64,000 nucleotides of DNA from contig JAQTTB010000002.1 in the NCBI GenBank assembly GCA_028710985.1, positions 6,888 to 70,887 on the forward strand. Direction: 5' to 3'. This DNA comes from Patescibacteria group bacterium (lineage in GTDB: Bacteria; Patescibacteriota; Patescibacteriia; JAHJFT01). Positions within the stretch are counted from its first letter, which is position 1; the number at the start of each line of letters is the position of its first letter. Position numbers and translations under genes: made by a program. The notes under the pieces were generated by a model. That model had not been told where the DNA came from. It saw only the letters and a program-made list of their open reading frames with translations, and did not search any database. Of this stretch, positions 2,368 through 61,712 are shown piece by piece.

Positions 2368-3180
2368 TTAAAGCGGGCTTCGGATATTTTTAAGCCCGGG
2401 ATTGGTCACGTGCGTGTATAATTGCGTAGTCCGGATATTCTGATGGCCAAGCAGGGCTTGCACATAGCGCACGTCAGTGCCATTTTCCAGCAAATGCGTG
2501 GCAAAACTGTGCCGAAGCGCGTGGAATCCGGCGGGCTTGTTAATCCCAGCGCGCTTCACGCAGTCAGAAAATACTCTTTGCGCCGTCCGGGTCGTAAGCC
2601 GGCCGCCGCGTTCGCTCAAAAACAGGTATTCATCCCCTGTTTTTCCGGCCGCTAAATTCAGCAGTTCGGCCTTAATTCGCTCCGGTATAACCGAAACCCG
2701 ATCCTTACCGCCTTTTGCCTCGCGAATATTCAGCATAAGCTCATCAAAATCCACATCGCGTACGCGCAGTCCGACAACCTCACTCACCCTCAACCCCGCG
2801 CCATACGCCAGGGCAATGAGAAGCCGGTGCTTAGCATTACGGCAGACATTCAGAATCCGCCCAATCTCATCGCGCGTCAGAACCACCGGCAATTTTTGCG
2901 ACCTCTTCACCGCCCTCACTTCAAGCAACCCGTGGCTTTTTACCACTTGCCGGTAAAAAAATTTAATCGCATTCAGCCATAAATTAATGGTTTGCGGCGA
3001 TAATCCCCTATCCCGCGCGTACAATATAAAATCCCGCACATTTTCCGAATCGGCAACCGCAAAATTATGCTTTTTGAATAAAAAATACTCCTTAATCGCC
3101 CGCCGATAACTATCAATTGTCTTGGGACTATAATTACGCACTTTAAGCTCTTTTTCCGTCTGTTCTAAATATTCTTGCAT
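2368..3180 (-). CDS. tyrosine recombinase, integron-integrase-like but with Xer-like architecture (no IntI-specific extra domain)
   Basis: 270 aa. Box I region (AYGAGLRVSEVVGLRVRDVDFD), KGGKDR, box II (HALRHSFATHLLENGTDVRYVQALLGH...LYTHV) and a C-terminal 'IRSPL' tail. The motif LPVVLTRDEIGRIL is reminiscent of IntI1. The gene is divergent from the adjacent attC-separated cassette array. Confidence 0.8.
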   Translation of the reverse strand: MQEYLEQTEKELKVRNYSPKTIDSYRRAIKEYFLFKKHNFAVADSENVRDFILYARDRGLSPQTINLWLNAIKFFYRQVVKSHGLLEVRAVKRSQKLPVVLTRDEIGRILNVCRNAKHRLLIALAYGAGLRVSEVVGLRVRDVDFDELMLNIREAKGGKDRVSVIPERIKAELLNLAAGKTGDEYLFLSERGGRLTTRTAQRVFSDCVKRAGINKPAGFHALRHSFATHLLENGTDVRYVQALLGHQNIRTTQLYTHVTNPGLKNIRSPL

Positions 3181-3301
3181 ATATCAATGAATTATTGCTA
3201 AAATACCCTTATGCCCTTATATTCATTATCCCCCAACCACCACCCAACACACAACTTTTGGGTGTTGTCATCTTTTTTCAACATATAAGAACGAGTTAGC
3301 T
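3181..3301. promoter_or_regulatory. attI-like region with first cassette junction (GTTAGCT at 3295-3301) and likely cassette promoter
   Basis: GTTAGCT is the reverse complement of the R'' (AGCTAAC) of the first attC. Small inverted repeat CAACAC..GTGTTG at 3244-3270. A TATAAAT -10-like box precedes 3474. Confidence 0.4.
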
Positions 3302-3473
3302 GAAATATTCCTTTTCTTTTTTGGGCTATCGCCCAATTGTTTTAAGAAATTTTCAAATTTCTTTTTCATTAATTATAGAGGGGAATATGGAGTTTTCTTC
3401 GCTCCGCTACGAAAACGATTTATTTATAAGGGGAAAACTAGTACAATACATTTGCATTACTTGAATATAAATT

Positions 3474-4532
3474 ATGATGTCTCAAACAACGCTGTTCGGC
3501 GAAAAGTACAAAATACACCAATTTCCAAGAACTCAATATTTGGGAAGCAAGGAGAAGCTTATCAAGTGGATTCTTGAAATTGCCCCAAAAGATATTGGAA
3601 CTGTTTTTGATGCTTTTAGTGGCACATCTGTTGTTGGTTATTATTTTAAAGATGGAGGCTATAAGGTTTATAGTAATGACTTTTTAAAATGTAACTCTTT
3701 AATTTCTAAAGCTTTAATTGAAAATCAAAATATCACTCTTGATAAAAATGATATAGATATTTTGTTAGACGAAACTACAAAAGCTGATAATCTAATCGAA
3801 AAGATTTTTACTGGAGTTTTTTTTGAAAAAGACCAAGCAAAATTTTTAGATATATTTAGAGCCAATGTTGAAAAACTAGACAACGAGTATAAAAAAGCAT
3901 TGGCTTTAGCTTTAATGAATAGATCTCTGACAAGAAAAATTACATTAGGTCATTTTGCTCACTTAAAAGCAATTGAATACAGTAAAAATCCAGATAGAAT
4001 TAAAAGAAATGCAAGTTTAGCAAAACACCTAAAAGATATTTTTCAAAGTCTTGTTCATTCATATAATCATGCAATTTTTGATAATAAAAAAAGGAACAAA
4101 GTTTTTTGCGAAGATACAATTTCTTTGCTTCCAAAACTTCAAGATGTCGATTTGGCTTATTTTGATCCACCTTATGTTGGCTGTCACCCAGACTACCAAG
4201 CATTTTATCATTTTTTAGAAACTTTTGTTCAGTACTGGAAAAATAAAGAATTTGTAAATGGCACAAAGTCATATTTTCCCAAAAAAGAAAGTGGATTTGT
4301 TCAAAAAACGGATATTGAAAAATCTTTTGAAAAACTTTTTGAAAACAGCAAACATATTCCTTATTGGTTAGTTTCTTACAATAGCAAGAGTTATCCAGAG
4401 AAAGAAAGAATGATCGAACTTATCAAAAAGCACAAAAAGGTAAAAGTGTACGAAAACGAATACTCAAATCATTATGGCGGGAAAGGAAGCCGTAAAGGAA
4501 CAGTTGAATATTTATTTTATTGCTATAACTAA
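3474..4532 (+). CDS. N6-adenine DNA methyltransferase, D12 class (Dam-like)
   Basis: N-terminal 'QYLGSKEKLIKWI' and the 'FDPPYVG' DPPY motif. Confidence 0.8.
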   Translation: MMSQTTLFGEKYKIHQFPRTQYLGSKEKLIKWILEIAPKDIGTVFDAFSGTSVVGYYFKDGGYKVYSNDFLKCNSLISKALIENQNITLDKNDIDILLDETTKADNLIEKIFTGVFFEKDQAKFLDIFRANVEKLDNEYKKALALALMNRSLTRKITLGHFAHLKAIEYSKNPDRIKRNASLAKHLKDIFQSLVHSYNHAIFDNKKRNKVFCEDTISLLPKLQDVDLAYFDPPYVGCHPDYQAFYHFLETFVQYWKNKEFVNGTKSYFPKKESGFVQKTDIEKSFEKLFENSKHIPYWLVSYNSKSYPEKERMIELIKKHKKVKVYENEYSNHYGGKGSRKGTVEYLFYCYN

Positions 4533-4538
4533 AACATT

Positions 4539-5630
4539 ATGAATCATAAAATCTACCAACAACTCAAAAAACTATACGACGCAAACGACTTTGAAAAATT
4601 ACTCAAAGATTCAAATAGTTTGCTTTTTCTGAAAATTCGTTCAATCACAAGAAAAGCCTTGCTTGTTGAATTTGCAGAAAAAATTGACATCGATCCCAAT
4701 CAGGGTACCAACGATTTAATTGAACAAATCGTAAATAACCCAAAAACTGAAAAAGCTATTGATAAATTTATCAATGACAAATTCCAAAATGAAAGAAAGG
4801 AAAGAAAAATCTATGAAGATAAACTCATTTCGGAATTATATAAACTGAAAATTTTCGATTGGGGTGGTCTGTATCAAAACAATCTTGAACGAACGATAGT
4901 TGATAACTACATCAAAAAAATTAAAAACTTTGATGTTTTAATGGACAAAATTGATAACGAAATACACGAAAGTTTAAAGGGATATGTTTTGTGTTCTTGG
5001 TTTAATCACTGGACTTCAATTTTGATCGAAGATATTTTTAAGGAACACAAGAGAGTGTTACCAACGATTGGGTTAATCAAAAAAGTTGATTTTTTTGTCG
5101 ATCAAATACCTTTCGACCTTAAAGTAACTTATTTTCCGGACGGATTCATGGCTTTAAAACGAAAAGAAAAAGGACTAAAACCGGAACTTACTGAACTCAA
5201 ACAAATCGCCAAAGCAAATAAAATCAAATTTGACTCAACACAAAAAAATAAATCTCTCCTTTCTGAACTGTTAATCAGACTATCCGAGAGTCATCTTGAA
5301 CCAGCTAAAAAAGCGATAACAGAATTTCACAAAACGAGATGGAAAATAATTGAAGAAGCAATGGAAAATAAAAAAGGGCTCATTAAATGGCTTTATGAGG
5401 AACAAGGCGAAAGGCGTTTTGATTCTGCTAATCGTTTATTTTTAGTATTGATAGAAAAAAATAATCTTGAGGAAAGCTGGAAACTCAAACGCAATATTGA
5501 TTTTCTAAAAGAAAGTGTCGGGTCTTATCTTGATAAGTTTAAAATCAACGATAATTTAGAGATCAATTTTGACTGGAAAGATGAAAAATACACATCTGTT
5601 TCAGATGCCTTGTTTATAGTGAAAGAATAA
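4539..5630 (+). CDS. hypothetical protein; candidate cognate restriction endonuclease of the adjacent Dam-like MTase
   Basis: 363-aa ORF lying 6 bp downstream of the MTase in the same cassette. Possible PD-(D/E)xK-like 'VDQIPFDLKV'. No firm motif recognised. Confidence 0.35.
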   Translation: MNHKIYQQLKKLYDANDFEKLLKDSNSLLFLKIRSITRKALLVEFAEKIDIDPNQGTNDLIEQIVNNPKTEKAIDKFINDKFQNERKERKIYEDKLISELYKLKIFDWGGLYQNNLERTIVDNYIKKIKNFDVLMDKIDNEIHESLKGYVLCSWFNHWTSILIEDIFKEHKRVLPTIGLIKKVDFFVDQIPFDLKVTYFPDGFMALKRKEKGLKPELTELKQIAKANKIKFDSTQKNKSLLSELLIRLSESHLEPAKKAITEFHKTRWKIIEEAMENKKGLIKWLYEEQGERRFDSANRLFLVLIEKNNLEESWKLKRNIDFLKESVGSYLDKFKINDNLEINFDWKDEKYTSVSDALFIVKE

Positions 5631-5635
5631 AGATT

Positions 5636-6451
5636 ATGGAAGAATTTATAACTAAATGGCAAACATTGATTGGCTCCGCACTTGGTCCTTTTCTTGCGGT
5701 TATTCTTTCAGCTATAGGTTTTTGGATAAAATCAATCATAGAAGGTAAGAAAGAGCGAAAAGAATTTTTGCGACGAATAGAAATTGGAATTACTCGAAGT
5801 CTTGATGATACATTCAAAACTCGAATAAAACTCCAATATTTTGTATCAAGATTGAGAACACTAATTACAGACATCAGAAAAATAACAGACATTAAACATT
5901 TTTCTCTTGAAACCATAAACTACCCAACCATACGCGATATTTATAAAGACGTCGATTTAGCAAATTTCAAGGTTAAAAGCTACTATCTACACAACATGCT
6001 TTTATGGGCTGACGCAGGAATCAAAGAAACAAATGAAACAGTAATCAGTCTAAAAAATGACTTTGCTGAATTGCAGAGAAAAAACGAACTACATATTATC
6101 TTAATGAGACAAAACCAAACACCAAATCCCGCCCAACAAAGAGCAGAATACGCCGACAATCTTGAATCATTTGCAAACGCCATAGATGAATTTATAACAA
6201 AATTCATGAAACAGGGCGTCGAGATATTGACTCAAATTAAAATTTATAACGAACATTTACGGAAAAAACATGGTTATTGGTTTTTATGGAAATGTGAAGG
6301 AACTAAATTTAAGTATTTTCGCAATAAAACCGAACAGAAAAATTTCTCAAGAAATCTTGACTCAATGGAAAGAATTGACAAAATTATCCAGAAAGAAGTT
6401 GGTGATGCTATCAAAGACGCAGAAGCCAGAGCCTCGAAACTACAACAATAA
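5636..6451 (+). CDS. hypothetical membrane-anchored coiled-coil protein
   Basis: 271-aa ORF with an N-terminal TM segment, in the same AT-rich cassette. Confidence 0.45.
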   Translation: MEEFITKWQTLIGSALGPFLAVILSAIGFWIKSIIEGKKERKEFLRRIEIGITRSLDDTFKTRIKLQYFVSRLRTLITDIRKITDIKHFSLETINYPTIRDIYKDVDLANFKVKSYYLHNMLLWADAGIKETNETVISLKNDFAELQRKNELHIILMRQNQTPNPAQQRAEYADNLESFANAIDEFITKFMKQGVEILTQIKIYNEHLRKKHGYWFLWKCEGTKFKYFRNKTEQKNFSRNLDSMERIDKIIQKEVGDAIKDAEARASKLQQ

Positions 6452-26774: not shown

Positions 26775-27737
26775 CTACCCAAGATTCGCATCAATTTCTG
26801 CCGCTTCGAACACTGCCAGACGCATCGCCAGATCGTCACGAATCTTTTTCGCCTGCTTGGACCTGATGAATCGCTTGGTCGCGTCCAATTGGCCGATAGT
26901 CTCCTCCAGAAGTTCGCGTTCGTGCCGCTTGGCGGCCAACAGCGCCTCCATCACCTCTTCACGCTCGGCACGAATTTCGGCAATTTCTCGCCGACGTTCG
27001 CGCACTTCTCGGAGTAGGTTTGGCACTTCATGCCGCCACTCCTGAATACCGCCATGTATCTGATGCGCGAATCGGAGTGTCTCACCCACGGTAAGTGCGA
27101 TTGCGTCGCCTTTCCCGTCGATTAGCTCGACATACTGTCCGGCTATCGGATCAGTAATCGGTTTGGGCGCACGAACGCGCCAAGCCATTGTCAGCAGAAG
27201 ATAATCGCTGGAGTCGCAATAGAACAGCTGACCCTGCCTGCGTCTGAACCAGCCGCCAAGCGGTACACGGAGGAAGTTATTGTGTTTTCCCCTTGCAGCT
27301 AACGCGGAAGATGATTCAAGCGATCTATTTTTGAGCGACATATTTCCGCGCGAGACAATAATAACGCCGACGTCCGGGTCCACTCCCTGATTATCGAGAA
27401 TCCAGAACCACGCGTCGTAGCCCACGACGTTGCGGCGCCAGCAGGGAGTTATCTTTTCTATCTCTAAAAGTACCAACCCTACGCCGAAAAGTCCGCCCAG
27501 GACGAACCCTGCAGCCGTAACAAATAAAATAATAACGTCCATTCCCGATACTTGGTTTGGCATATGTGTGAGTATCCACAGATGCCAAACAAGGGACGGG
27601 ATGGCTAACGACAACAGGAGCATACCGATTAGTGCGATCTTCATCTTTCCCAGCTCCACCAGCCCCAATTCCATGGGAACCGCATCCTCGAGCCCCTCAG
27701 GCATCTTGTTCTCGTTCCTTTTCTCGTTCTCGCTCAT
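26775..27737 (-). CDS. hypothetical membrane protein (2 TM plus bPH-like and coiled-coil regions), GC-rich
   Basis: Start chosen at MSENEK, which has a GGAAAGGAAAC Shine-Dalgarno. The longest ORF extends to 27884. Confidence 0.45.
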   Translation of the reverse strand: MSENEKRNENKMPEGLEDAVPMELGLVELGKMKIALIGMLLLSLAIPSLVWHLWILTHMPNQVSGMDVIILFVTAAGFVLGGLFGVGLVLLEIEKITPCWRRNVVGYDAWFWILDNQGVDPDVGVIIVSRGNMSLKNRSLESSSALAARGKHNNFLRVPLGGWFRRRQGQLFYCDSSDYLLLTMAWRVRAPKPITDPIAGQYVELIDGKGDAIALTVGETLRFAHQIHGGIQEWRHEVPNLLREVRERRREIAEIRAEREEVMEALLAAKRHERELLEETIGQLDATKRFIRSKQAKKIRDDLAMRLAVFEAAEIDANLG

Positions 27738-27930
27738 CTTGGTTTCCTTTCCAACTTCCGCCTCGGGCGGAAAAGTGGGTGGCGCGGTGGAAGAGCCTTT
27801 CCTGATCCCGATAGCCCCAATGGCAATCAGGGGGGACAATCTCTTCAGCCCGCCGGGGAATTTTGTTTTTAAGGATCTCGACACTAAACATTAGCACTCT
27901 TTTTTCAAAATGTCAATACTGTCATGTTTT

Positions 27931-28330
27931 CGTCATTCCCGCGAAGGCGGGAATCCAAGCGCAATATACCGGGGGTATCTCAGTCAATATTATCGTACAA
28001 ATCACTCCAGAGAGGATTAAAATCCTCTATCAATCTAATCTTCCAACTGCGGTTCCATTTCTTTAATTGCTTTTCCCGCATAATTGCTTCTTCAATGCTC
28101 TCGTACATTTCGTAATATACTAACTTATTAATATAATGCTGCGCCGTGAAAGCGCTGTCTTCGCCTTGCTTATGCTCAAATACCCTGCGCTTTAAATTAT
28201 TCGTTACGCCAATATACAAAGTCCCGTTTCTATTGCTTGCGAGAATGTACGTATAAAATTGATAATAATCGAGCATCTGTACTATTTATTGTTTTCTGGT
28301 AGCTTATAGTATCTGGATTCCCGCCTTCGC
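27931..28330. mobile_element. 400-bp mini-element: 26-bp perfect hairpin-containing TIRs flanking a GIY-YIG nuclease gene
   Basis: CGTCATTCCCGCGAAGGCGGGAATCC at 27931-27956 and its exact reverse complement at 28305-28330. Each TIR folds as ATTCCCGC-GAAG-GCGGGAAT. Confidence 0.55.
27980..28276 (-). CDS. GIY-YIG nuclease family protein (COG2827-like, 98 aa)
   Basis: GTLYIGVTNNLKRRVFEH GIY-YIG motif. Confidence 0.8.
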   Translation of the reverse strand: MLDYYQFYTYILASNRNGTLYIGVTNNLKRRVFEHKQGEDSAFTAQHYINKLVYYEMYESIEEAIMREKQLKKWNRSWKIRLIEDFNPLWSDLYDNID

Positions 28331-28423
28331 GGGAATGACGGAAGAGTGATTTGCGTTAAAAAGCGATGCATGCCAGAATTTGACTTTATGCAAATGGAGT
28401 AGGAGATAAAAAACGCGATTTGT

Positions 28424-29671
28424 CTATAAAATCCGTCCTCTGATCTCGCGATGATACTTCACCGCAAACCGATGCGCCTCATCGCGGACACGGACTAAAA
28501 TTGCTTTGTATTGCTCGCTGACGCGTTTAAGCTCGGGATCGAGCCGGTCGTAAATCAATTCATCTTTTTTGCGCGTAATGCCCTTGGCAATGCCGACCGC
28601 CGGAATGCGCAGCCTAAACAGACTTAAAATTTCCAGAGCGGCATTCACCTGTCCCCTACCGCCGTCAATCAGAATCAAGTCCGGATGCGGCCAGCGGTTC
28701 CGGAAACGCCGCGCCAGAACTTCTTTAAGCATGCCGGTGTCATTGGTGCCGCGGATTGTTTTAATTTTAAATTTGCGGTACTCGCCTTTCGCCGGTTCGC
28801 CTTGATCAAAAACAACCATGCTTCCGACCGCGTGCTGTCCGCTGATCATTGATATATCGTAACCCTCGACCCTTCCAAAAATATTTATGAACTTCTCGCC
28901 GGCCAGGCCGATCTCCGGAGTCGGCTCATCACGCTTTAATAAAGCGATATCCTGAATATGCTCCAATGCGCGGATTTGATTACGGACCGTTGCTGCTTTC
29001 TCGAATTTTGAATTCTCCGACAATCGCTTCATTTCTTTTTTCAGATTCGCAAGAACCCGCGTCTTCCGGCCCTGAAAAAACAAAATCAGGTTGCGGATAA
29101 TTTTTGCGTAATCCGCGCGGCTGATCTTTCCCGCGCACACTCCCGGACATTTGCCAATCTGAAAATTAAAACACGCCCGCTTCTGATTCGGTTCACAGGT
29201 GGAATACGGGATCATCTTGCGGATAAGATCCAGAGCGGCGCGCAGAGAACGCGCCGAAAGATAGGGTCCGAACACGGCTTTGAATCTATTCCTATTCATG
29301 CGCCTGAGCTCAAGTCCACGAATCAGCATGGGCCGCGGAAAATCATCTTTGGTAATCGCGAGATATAAAAAACTTTTATCATCCTTTTCGCGGATATTGT
29401 ATTTGGGCAAATACTTTTTAATCAGATTGGCCTCAAGGATAAGGGCTTCGAGCACCGACAGCGTGATCTGATAATCAATGCGCCGGATGTCCCGGACAAG
29501 GCGCGCGGTCTTGTCGTCATGGGATTTTAGAAAATACGAAGAAACCCGGCTCTTGAGCGAAGCCGCTTTGCCCACATAAATAATCTCGCCGCCCGCGTCG
29601 CGCATCAGATAAACGCCCGGTTCGGCCGGCAATAGATTATTTTTAATTTTTACGTTTTTCGGAATTGCCAT
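28424..29671 (-). CDS. uvrC: excinuclease ABC subunit C, short form (lacks C-terminal HhH)
   Basis: N-terminal GIY-YIG (GVYLMRDAGGEIIYVGKA), Cys-rich region and UvrC RNaseH-like domain; 415 aa. Confidence 0.8.
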   Translation of the reverse strand: MAIPKNVKIKNNLLPAEPGVYLMRDAGGEIIYVGKAASLKSRVSSYFLKSHDDKTARLVRDIRRIDYQITLSVLEALILEANLIKKYLPKYNIREKDDKSFLYLAITKDDFPRPMLIRGLELRRMNRNRFKAVFGPYLSARSLRAALDLIRKMIPYSTCEPNQKRACFNFQIGKCPGVCAGKISRADYAKIIRNLILFFQGRKTRVLANLKKEMKRLSENSKFEKAATVRNQIRALEHIQDIALLKRDEPTPEIGLAGEKFINIFGRVEGYDISMISGQHAVGSMVVFDQGEPAKGEYRKFKIKTIRGTNDTGMLKEVLARRFRNRWPHPDLILIDGGRGQVNAALEILSLFRLRIPAVGIAKGITRKKDELIYDRLDPELKRVSEQYKAILVRVRDEAHRFAVKYHREIRGRIL

Positions 29672-57164: not shown

Positions 57165-57281
57165 AAGGGACGGCGGGAATCGAACCCGCAACCTTTCCGG
57201 TTCCGGAATCGTGCTCAAGATAGGAGGTCAGTCCTTAGTCGACTCCGGTCGTTAACGCTCTGCCAGTTGAGCTACGTCCCT
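57165..57281 (-). tRNA. tRNA-like gene (117 nt) with canonical acceptor, D and T arms but a roughly 40-45-nt insertion in the anticodon/variable region; possible intron-containing tRNA or tRNA-derived pseudogene
   Basis: 5' AGGGACG-T-A-GCTC-AACTGGCA-GAGC-G ... 65-nt region with a 9-bp internal stem (CCGGAGTCG/CGATTCCGG) ... GCGGG-TTCGATT-CCCGC-CGTCCCT-T. A terminator hairpin lies downstream at about 57096-57125. Confidence 0.4.
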
Positions 57282-61575: not shown

Positions 61576-61712
61576 TGTCATCCTGAGCCCCCCGCATAGC
61601 GGGGCGGGCGAAGGATCTCACATTTCTCGCAAACCGCTGTGGCGCCATGAATAGTCATCACGAGACCGTGAGATCCTTCGCCCCGCCTTCGGCGGGACTC
61701 AGGATGACGACA
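61576..61712. repeat. MITE-like palindromic element: two inverted copies of an approx. 45-bp hairpin-containing repeat (GTCATCCTGAG-CCCGC-NNNN-GCGGGG-CGAAGGATCTCAC)
   Basis: Left copy 61577-61620 and right copy (reverse complement) 61668-61708. Each carries a CCCGC-tetraloop-GCGGG hairpin, as in the GIY-YIG element TIRs. Confidence 0.5.

Follow-up and report, generated by a model that had tools for sequence, protein, structure and literature searches.

A Patescibacteria locus of the Ssn/NTS type: a 98-aa GIY-YIG nuclease gene between two inverted copies of its probable recognition hairpin

The stretch of DNA analysed here (hereafter, the window) comprises 64 kb of a Patescibacteria metagenome-assembled genome (MAG) and carries a short gene for a GIY-YIG nuclease, ssn, bracketed by two hairpin-forming repeats in inverted orientation. 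Both repeats match the Neisseria Transformation Sequence (NTS), and the features of the locus, in coordinates of the window, are as follows:

27980–28276, minus strand: ssn gene; its 98-aa product consists of one GIY-YIG domain and belongs to the Ssn nucleases
28313–28340, minus strand (that of the gene): upstream NTS, minus-strand reading CGTCATTCCCGCGAAGGCGGGAATCCAG, 28/28 fit to the NTS consensus
27931–27958, plus strand (opposite to the gene): downstream NTS, CGTCATTCCCGCGAAGGCGGGAATCCAA, 27/28 fit to the NTS consensus
27935–27954, no strand assigned: hairpin core of the left NTS, ATTCCCGC-GAAG-GCGGGAAT, a dRS3-type palindrome ATTCCC-N8-GGGAAT
28317–28336, no strand assigned: hairpin core of the right NTS, from folding and pattern match
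27926–27927, plus strand: predicted Ssn cut site, about 4 nt 5' of CGTC, transferred from the oligonucleotides of PMC11893778
28344–28345, minus strand: predicted Ssn cut site, about 4 nt 5' of CGTC, transferred from the same oligonucleotides

The left arm, the 26-mer CGTCATTCCCGCGAAGGCGGGAATCC, lies at positions 27931–27956 of the plus strand, exactly where the initial annotation had placed it. Its exact reverse complement, which that annotation had located at 28305–28330 to give a unit of 400 bp, does exist, but 10 bp higher, at 28315–28340, and the NTS-ssn-NTS unit in the window is 410 bp long. The inverted repeat extends to 30 nt with one mismatch (27928–27957 and 28314–28343); the idea that this extended repeat ends at the cut site was dropped when the cut position was re-derived as about 4 nt, not 3 nt, from CGTC. 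As single-stranded DNA, both arms fold into the stem-loops that had been read from the letters, with an 8-bp stem and a 4-nt loop (−8.7 to −9.6 kcal/mol; z of −2.5 to −3.4 against shuffled sequences), and an Rfam-type search of the window matched no RNA family that could explain them. Between the arms, no ORF of substantial length was present other than the 98-aa one at 27980–28276 (minus strand), in keeping with the earlier description of a GIY-YIG gene standing alone in the unit. Further copies of the repeat and target-site duplications, for which a search had been suggested along with that description, were not found: no 26-mer beyond the two gene-flanking arms appeared in the 64-kb window when three mismatches or a looser hairpin pattern were allowed, and no direct repeat is present at the flanks of the unit (...TGTCATGTTTT and GAAGAGTGAT...). 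None of 100 dinucleotide-preserving shuffles of the window gave any match to the 26-mer with up to 3 mismatches (0/100).

Base composition was considered as a sign of recent transfer and proved weak, as the interior of the unit has a GC content of 0.371 vs 0.49–0.55 in its neighbours, yet 18% of the equal-sized segments of the 64 kb have a GC content no higher than this. A long low-GC stretch (0.26–0.33 vs a mean of 0.46 for the window), which may be an island, was noted at about positions 3000–6000.

The NTS is a 28-nt sequence of consensus CGTCATTCCCGCGMAVGCGGGAATCYRG that contains the dRS3 palindrome ATTCCC-N8-GGGAAT (Chenal et al., Nat Commun 2025, PMC11893778). [quoted passage not shown] Binding or cutting is lowered by single mutations that affect GTC, the stem, or the C that follows it, and changing the sequence of the stem while keeping its structure abolishes activity (PMC11893778). 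Hundreds of NTS copies are present per Neisseria genome, where the enzyme reduces transformation by NTS-bearing DNA about five-fold, and the NTS-ssnA-NTS layout has already been described (PMC11893778). The suggestion in the initial annotation that the nuclease acts on hairpin DNA thus agrees with experiments on the Ssn family, whereas the novelty that it had attributed to the element is superseded by the published architecture (PMC11893778).

The right arm of the window equals the Neisseria NTS consensus. The upstream site is located 36 nt 5' of the ssn ATG and 83 nt past the uvrC stop codon, and the downstream one 21 nt past the ssn stop codon. The degenerate SRM pattern of PMC11893778 matched once in the window, at the right copy (mean of 0.12 matches in shuffled sequences); the left copy misses the strict pattern because its last base is A, where the consensus has G.

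The ssn product matches the Pfam GIY-YIG family PF01541 over residues 7–80 (E 3e-17), with no second domain. For comparison with SsnA we used the N. gonorrhoeae ortholog from a PLSDB record, not the N. meningitidis protein; this ortholog has 94 aa and carries Y6, Y17, and E64, as described for SsnA, in which these are the positions of the catalytic mutants (PMC11893778). The window protein is 51% identical to it over 92 residues without gaps (BLASTP, E 6e-35), and its Y10, Y21, and E68 align with Y6, Y17, and E64; against the N. gonorrhoeae chromosome, tblastn gave E 7e-25, below the value of 1e-10 taken as the criterion for homology. In addition, all of the 23–25 family-invariant residues found in alignments of 26 and 40 family members are kept. 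An AlphaFold2 model showed a single compact GIY-YIG fold (mean pLDDT 89.3), and its nearest PDB entries were the UPF0213 proteins BH0048 (1zg2) and EF2693 (1ywl), Slx1, and the N-terminal domain of UvrC; no Ssn structure was found in the PDB. The UPF0213/YhbQ-type small GIY-YIG proteins, represented by these two best solved-structure matches, are thus alike in fold and size, but their sequence similarity is weak (E 9e-5 and 3e-4) and they form a separate subfamily, for which no association with NTS has been reported. Among NCBIfam models none was specific for the window protein, the sole match being TIGR01453 with 21 bits, below its cut-off of 56. Exact-sequence look-ups for the ssn protein, for the only paralog found (P0002, 81% identical at the protein level), and for the ORF neighbouring ssn with two alternative starts returned none on record. 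The PLSDB entries NZ_CP119140.1 and NZ_CP119142.1 are 2.17-Mb N. gonorrhoeae chromosomes filed as plasmids, a labelling error.

The initial annotation had set the unit apart from both classical insertion sequences and homing endonucleases, and in this it was right. A classical insertion sequence was rejected, as there is no transposase (DDE, serine, or HUH/Y1), the product of the sole ORF being GIY-YIG, nor a target-site duplication, nor near-identical copies. A GIY-YIG homing endonuclease of the I-TevI type was rejected likewise: the protein is a single domain of 98 aa, encoded at an intergenic chromosomal site, it falls short of the TIGR01453 cut-off, and its family is nearly absent from 2.9 million viral contigs, with one real relative among them. 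Association with phages or defence amounted to a marginal PADLOC match (UzuA, E 0.0019, 15.9 bits); among the PHROGs, none with a known function was matched.

Taken together, a size below 150 aa, homology to SsnA, the catalytic residues, and NTS/SRM sequences in both the 5' and the 3' flank indicate that the locus is very probably a Patescibacteria member of the Ssn/NTS system, in which the gene for a 98-aa nuclease lies between inverted copies of the 28-nt hairpin that the enzyme recognises, their CGTC ends pointing away from the gene. It shares with Neisseria SsnA a single GIY-YIG domain of about 95 aa, the same catalytic residues, the 28-nt NTS, and the inverted NTS-gene-NTS arrangement (PMC11893778). 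It differs in its host, a Patescibacteria MAG, a phylum that the text of PMC11893778 does not mention, in having two NTS copies in 64 kb vs hundreds per Neisseria genome, and in that its activity and biological role are predictions.

Relatives of the window protein were collected from GTDB species genomes and JGI metagenomes, each of which gave more than 570; the best 80 of each were kept (160 loci), and these are 53–67% identical to the window protein, no closer relative than 67% being found in either collection. The genome loci are labelled as Patescibacteria, Proteobacteria, Bacteroidota, Planctomycetota, Omnitrophota, Elusimicrobiota, Nitrospirae, and Spirochaetes, among others, and the metagenome contigs carry no organism labels. 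NTS-like matches were defined as ungapped matches to the 26-mer with up to 5 mismatches within 150 bp of the gene, and 149 loci could be evaluated. Matches were present on both sides of the gene in 73 of them, on one side only in 39, and on neither side in 37, although several loci scored as lacking NTS carry variant hairpins with other loop lengths that the ungapped search misses. These counts reproduce the published survey, in which 71% of homologs had one SRM or more and 42% had SRMs in both flanks (PMC11893778). The nearest pair was oriented as in the window in 58 of the 73 loci, that is, with the upstream site on the strand of the gene, the downstream site on the opposite one, and the CGTC ends outward, and the unit measured 352–493 bp from outer end to outer end (median 378, 410 in the window).

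Tandem arrays of NTS were also observed next to ssn homologs: 12 copies in two runs with a period of 41–42 bp (L011, 3613–4185; homologous and related loci are numbered L, proteins P), an array with a 165-bp period (L015, 1047–2615), and 6 copies with a 41-bp period upstream of the gene (L074). Arrays of such short period could pass for CRISPR arrays. In addition, the N-terminal extension MLDSRLRG... of a 111-aa homolog (P0046) resembles, by eye and at the protein level only, a reverse-strand translation of an NTS-like repeat; gene callers appear to run ssn ORFs into the repeat in this case.

The motif as a whole is near-invariant across the 160 loci; GTCAT, the stem, and ATCCAG are conserved at 90–100%, and directly outside the 28 nt conservation is at background level. 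Moreover, the 26-mer recurs without a single mismatch beside homologs in genomes of Tepidisphaeraceae, Rhodospirillales, and Gammaproteobacteria whose proteins are 56–61% identical to that of the window. The perfect arms had been taken at first as a sign of recent mobility, a reading that does not survive these comparisons: since the same 26-mer flanks such divergent homologs and the motif is near-invariant, the identity of the arms reflects a conserved recognition site, not recent movement.

The positions of the two sites, so close to the start and stop codons, could also be read as those of regulatory or terminator elements of ssn, for instance in autoregulation, with nuclease expression as the only role of the unit. 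A hypothesis of this kind, in which the protein acts on its own flanking sites, was the starting point for finding ssnA (PMC11893778). Nevertheless, neither hairpin is followed by a T-run, predictions for the strand of the gene gave neither a terminator-like nor a promoter-like site, the motif is kept in its sequence and not in its structure alone, and Ssn binds ssDNA only, neither dsDNA nor RNA (PMC11893778), all of which makes a purely regulatory function of the hairpins highly unlikely.

With respect to the genomic context, uvrC occupies positions 28424–29671 of the minus strand, the same strand as ssn, and the unit lies 83 bp downstream of its stop codon, not upstream of uvrC as had been stated. 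The connection with uvrC that had been drawn from this vicinity was abandoned as well, since uvrC was a neighbour of ssn homologs in none of 80 homologous loci (0/80), and three relatives whose UvrC is 75–76% identical show the order uvrA, a small ORF, uvrC, mraZ, rsmH, with no ssn; on these two results a functional link was rejected. A truncation of uvrC by the insertion was also rejected, as UvrC proteins of 393–458 aa with the same domains are the norm among the best 120 Patescibacteria-type matches. The spacer between uvrC and mraZ measures 166–362 bp in the three relatives vs 1897 bp in the window, where an ORF of 369 aa (26775–27884, minus strand), absent from the corresponding spacer of the relatives, sits between ssn and mraZ. 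This ORF, which matched no Pfam, PHROG, or PADLOC family, is lineage-specific and has a GC content of 0.54 vs 0.37 for ssn. A 98-aa ORF in one relative (L086) was considered as a displaced ssn and discarded, as it is not homologous.

In the uvrC-mraZ spacer of a further relative (L084, 5248–5611), three clustered NTS-like hairpins were found with neither an ssn gene nor a remnant of it, one of the GTCATCCTGAG type, one with a long loop (TGTCATTCCTGC...GCAGGAATCCAG), and one TGTCATTCCCGCGCAAGCGGGAATCC; in Patescibacteria, NTS-like repeats are thus also found on their own, and this in the same spacer where the window has its unit. Furthermore, Logan contigs from three independent assemblies with identical uvrC (L081, SRR22315509; L082, SRR22315506; L083, SRR22315508) all break off at the inner edge of the NTS nearer to uvrC, 109–110 nt past the uvrC stop codon, and differ at their other ends. 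Logan assemblies use a k-mer of 31, and a shared repeat of 27 nt, being shorter, should not by itself break the assembly graph. Population heterogeneity past the NTS, or a clash with the NTS of the paralog or of other organisms in the sample, are possible explanations for these ends.

Several observations bear on whether the unit moves. Paralogs from the same genome are alike only between the outer ends of their NTS, including the non-coding spacers inside, and unrelated outside: a pair from one MAG (L038/L054) is 85.7% identical over 378 bp, and the pairs L012/L062 and L128/L151 follow the same pattern. In addition, the relatives with uvrC adjoining mraZ have no ssn in between, and the phyletic distribution is patchy, with the closest homologs spread over many phyla at 53–67% identity (best 80 + 80 of more than 570 each). 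These observations suggest that the unit moves as a block, and the NTS-gene-NTS arrangement would be an evolutionary unit that was probably acquired horizontally as such. A search for filled and empty sites among related plasmids of Rhizobium gave no clean pair, synteny breaking at the gene in both cases.

These same observations could be accommodated by an autonomous IS-like transposon, in which Ssn would act as the transposase, nick the hairpin ends, and let the 410-bp unit excise or copy itself to new sites; the resemblance of the inverted-repeat layout to an insertion sequence has been raised as a hypothesis (Discussion of PMC11893778). We consider this unlikely. The flanks show no target-site duplication, and the perfect arms are explained by conservation of the site. 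The window contains a single copy of the unit, and its sole paralog, being 81% identical at the protein level, is not a recent one; in 32 complete replicons, only 1–2 copies were found per replicon. Moreover, synteny around the unit is maintained between genera (L017/L047/L058, L064/L068, L055/L066, and L008/L030/L078), as seen in Flavobacteriales, Lysobacter/Pseudoxanthomonas, Bdellovibrionales, and Patescibacteria. [quoted passage not shown] Finally, the characterised members of the Ssn family leave dsDNA uncut (PMC11893778).

The likeness to the "peel and paste" elements IS200/IS605 is in the small size and in an enzyme that recognises subterminal hairpins in ssDNA. In IS200/IS605, however, the two ends are not inverted with respect to each other, and the Y1 transposase cuts both of them on one strand and also rejoins them. 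In the window, by contrast, the sites are inverted, the cleavable sites are on opposite strands, and the enzyme is GIY-YIG, with no Y1/HUH domain.

A closer parallel may be found in the RAYT/TnpA-REP systems (REP/BIME, REPIN), where a single-copy gene likewise lies between inverted hairpin palindromes recognised as ssDNA, and where the palindrome can disperse through the genome. On this model, ssn would be a single-copy and mostly vertically inherited nuclease gene that spreads or maintains its cognate palindromes elsewhere, the repeats being unexpanded or lost in this genome. The low copy number of ssn fits such a model, as do the abundance of NTS in Neisseria, with 16 copies in the 3.3 kb around ssnA of N. 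gonorrhoeae (L089), the tandem arrays near ssn in L011, L015, and L074, the solo NTS-like hairpins in the spacer of L084, and a gene-less inverted pair of a related hairpin at positions 61577–61708 of the window. On the other hand, the only NTS copies in the 64 kb are the two that flank the gene, with no repeat expansion, and Ssn is unrelated to the HUH/Y1 transposases, its only Pfam match being to the hydrolytic GIY-YIG family. To our knowledge, GIY-YIG enzymes have neither a covalent intermediate nor a rejoining chemistry, and we know of no mechanism by which a hydrolytic nuclease of this type would copy repeats. On balance, a RAYT/REP-like behaviour of ssn seems possible but doubtful; the same analogy was drawn, as a hypothesis, in the Discussion of PMC11893778.

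More speculatively, NTS-ssn-NTS could represent an unrecognised class of mobile element, nicked as ssDNA at its hairpin ends, once per strand at the 5' edge, with host replication or repair completing the movement; the solitary, self-flanked copy in this Patescibacteria genome would then be the undomesticated state that precedes a spread of the hairpins such as that seen in Neisseria. We regard this proposal as improbable; a literature search found no later paper testing the mobility of NTS-ssn-NTS.

Returning to the reading of the locus as an Ssn/NTS member, the enzymatic activity, cut positions, and biological role proposed for the window protein are carried over from its characterised homologs. 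By analogy with the Neisseria and Wolbachia enzymes, it would ignore dsDNA and RNA and bind the NTS only once the DNA is single-stranded and the hairpin has formed, reading the GTC that directly precedes the stem and the C that directly follows it; the cut would fall about 4 nt 5' of CGTC. This position was derived from the oligonucleotide numbering of PMC11893778 (20-nt product, G26 as part of CGTC, and C49 directly behind the palindrome), and it differs by about 1 nt among Ssn homologs. Because the two NTS are inverted, cleavage would be possible at a single site per strand, the one at the 5' edge of the unit as that strand is read. Substrates would form wherever the DNA becomes single-stranded, as in the template of the lagging strand or in DNA entering by transformation or conjugation. 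The arms are identical because both are selected as recognition sites, not because the insertion is recent. The role played in Neisseria, where transformation is restricted at many NTS-flanked genes, is not simply transferable, because the window has two NTS copies and ssn is the sole gene flanked by them.

Judged from these sequence data, the locus is a new Patescibacteria example of a kind of element already known, Ssn/NTS. Its modest value is that of a clean minimal case, with a single nuclease gene and two cognate sites that have no further copy in the 64 kb, and the existence of relatives without the gene at the same site makes it convenient for testing whether NTS-ssn-NTS moves as a unit driven by the nuclease. 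It also adds one more predicted Ssn enzyme with canonical NTS specificity for ssDNA-cutting tools.

The gene-less pair at 61577–61708 is a second, different pair of inverted hairpins, with a left arm GTCATCCTGAGCCCCCCGCATAGCGGGGCGGGCGAAGGATCTCAC and an inverted partner, the arms being 46–72 nt apart. It shares the 5' GTCAT of the NTS, and its GTCAT ends face outward, as in an empty unit; the SRM pattern of PMC11893778 gave no match at this pair. Hairpins of the related GTCATCCTG type flank an ssn homolog in L076 and also occur in L084. One possible reading of the pair is a REPIN/MITE-like doublet of a different Ssn-type site, which the paralog P0002 might recognise. Finally, a 117-nt Rfam tRNA match (57165–57281, minus strand; 47 bits) is much longer than a normal tRNA and may hold an intron or an insertion.
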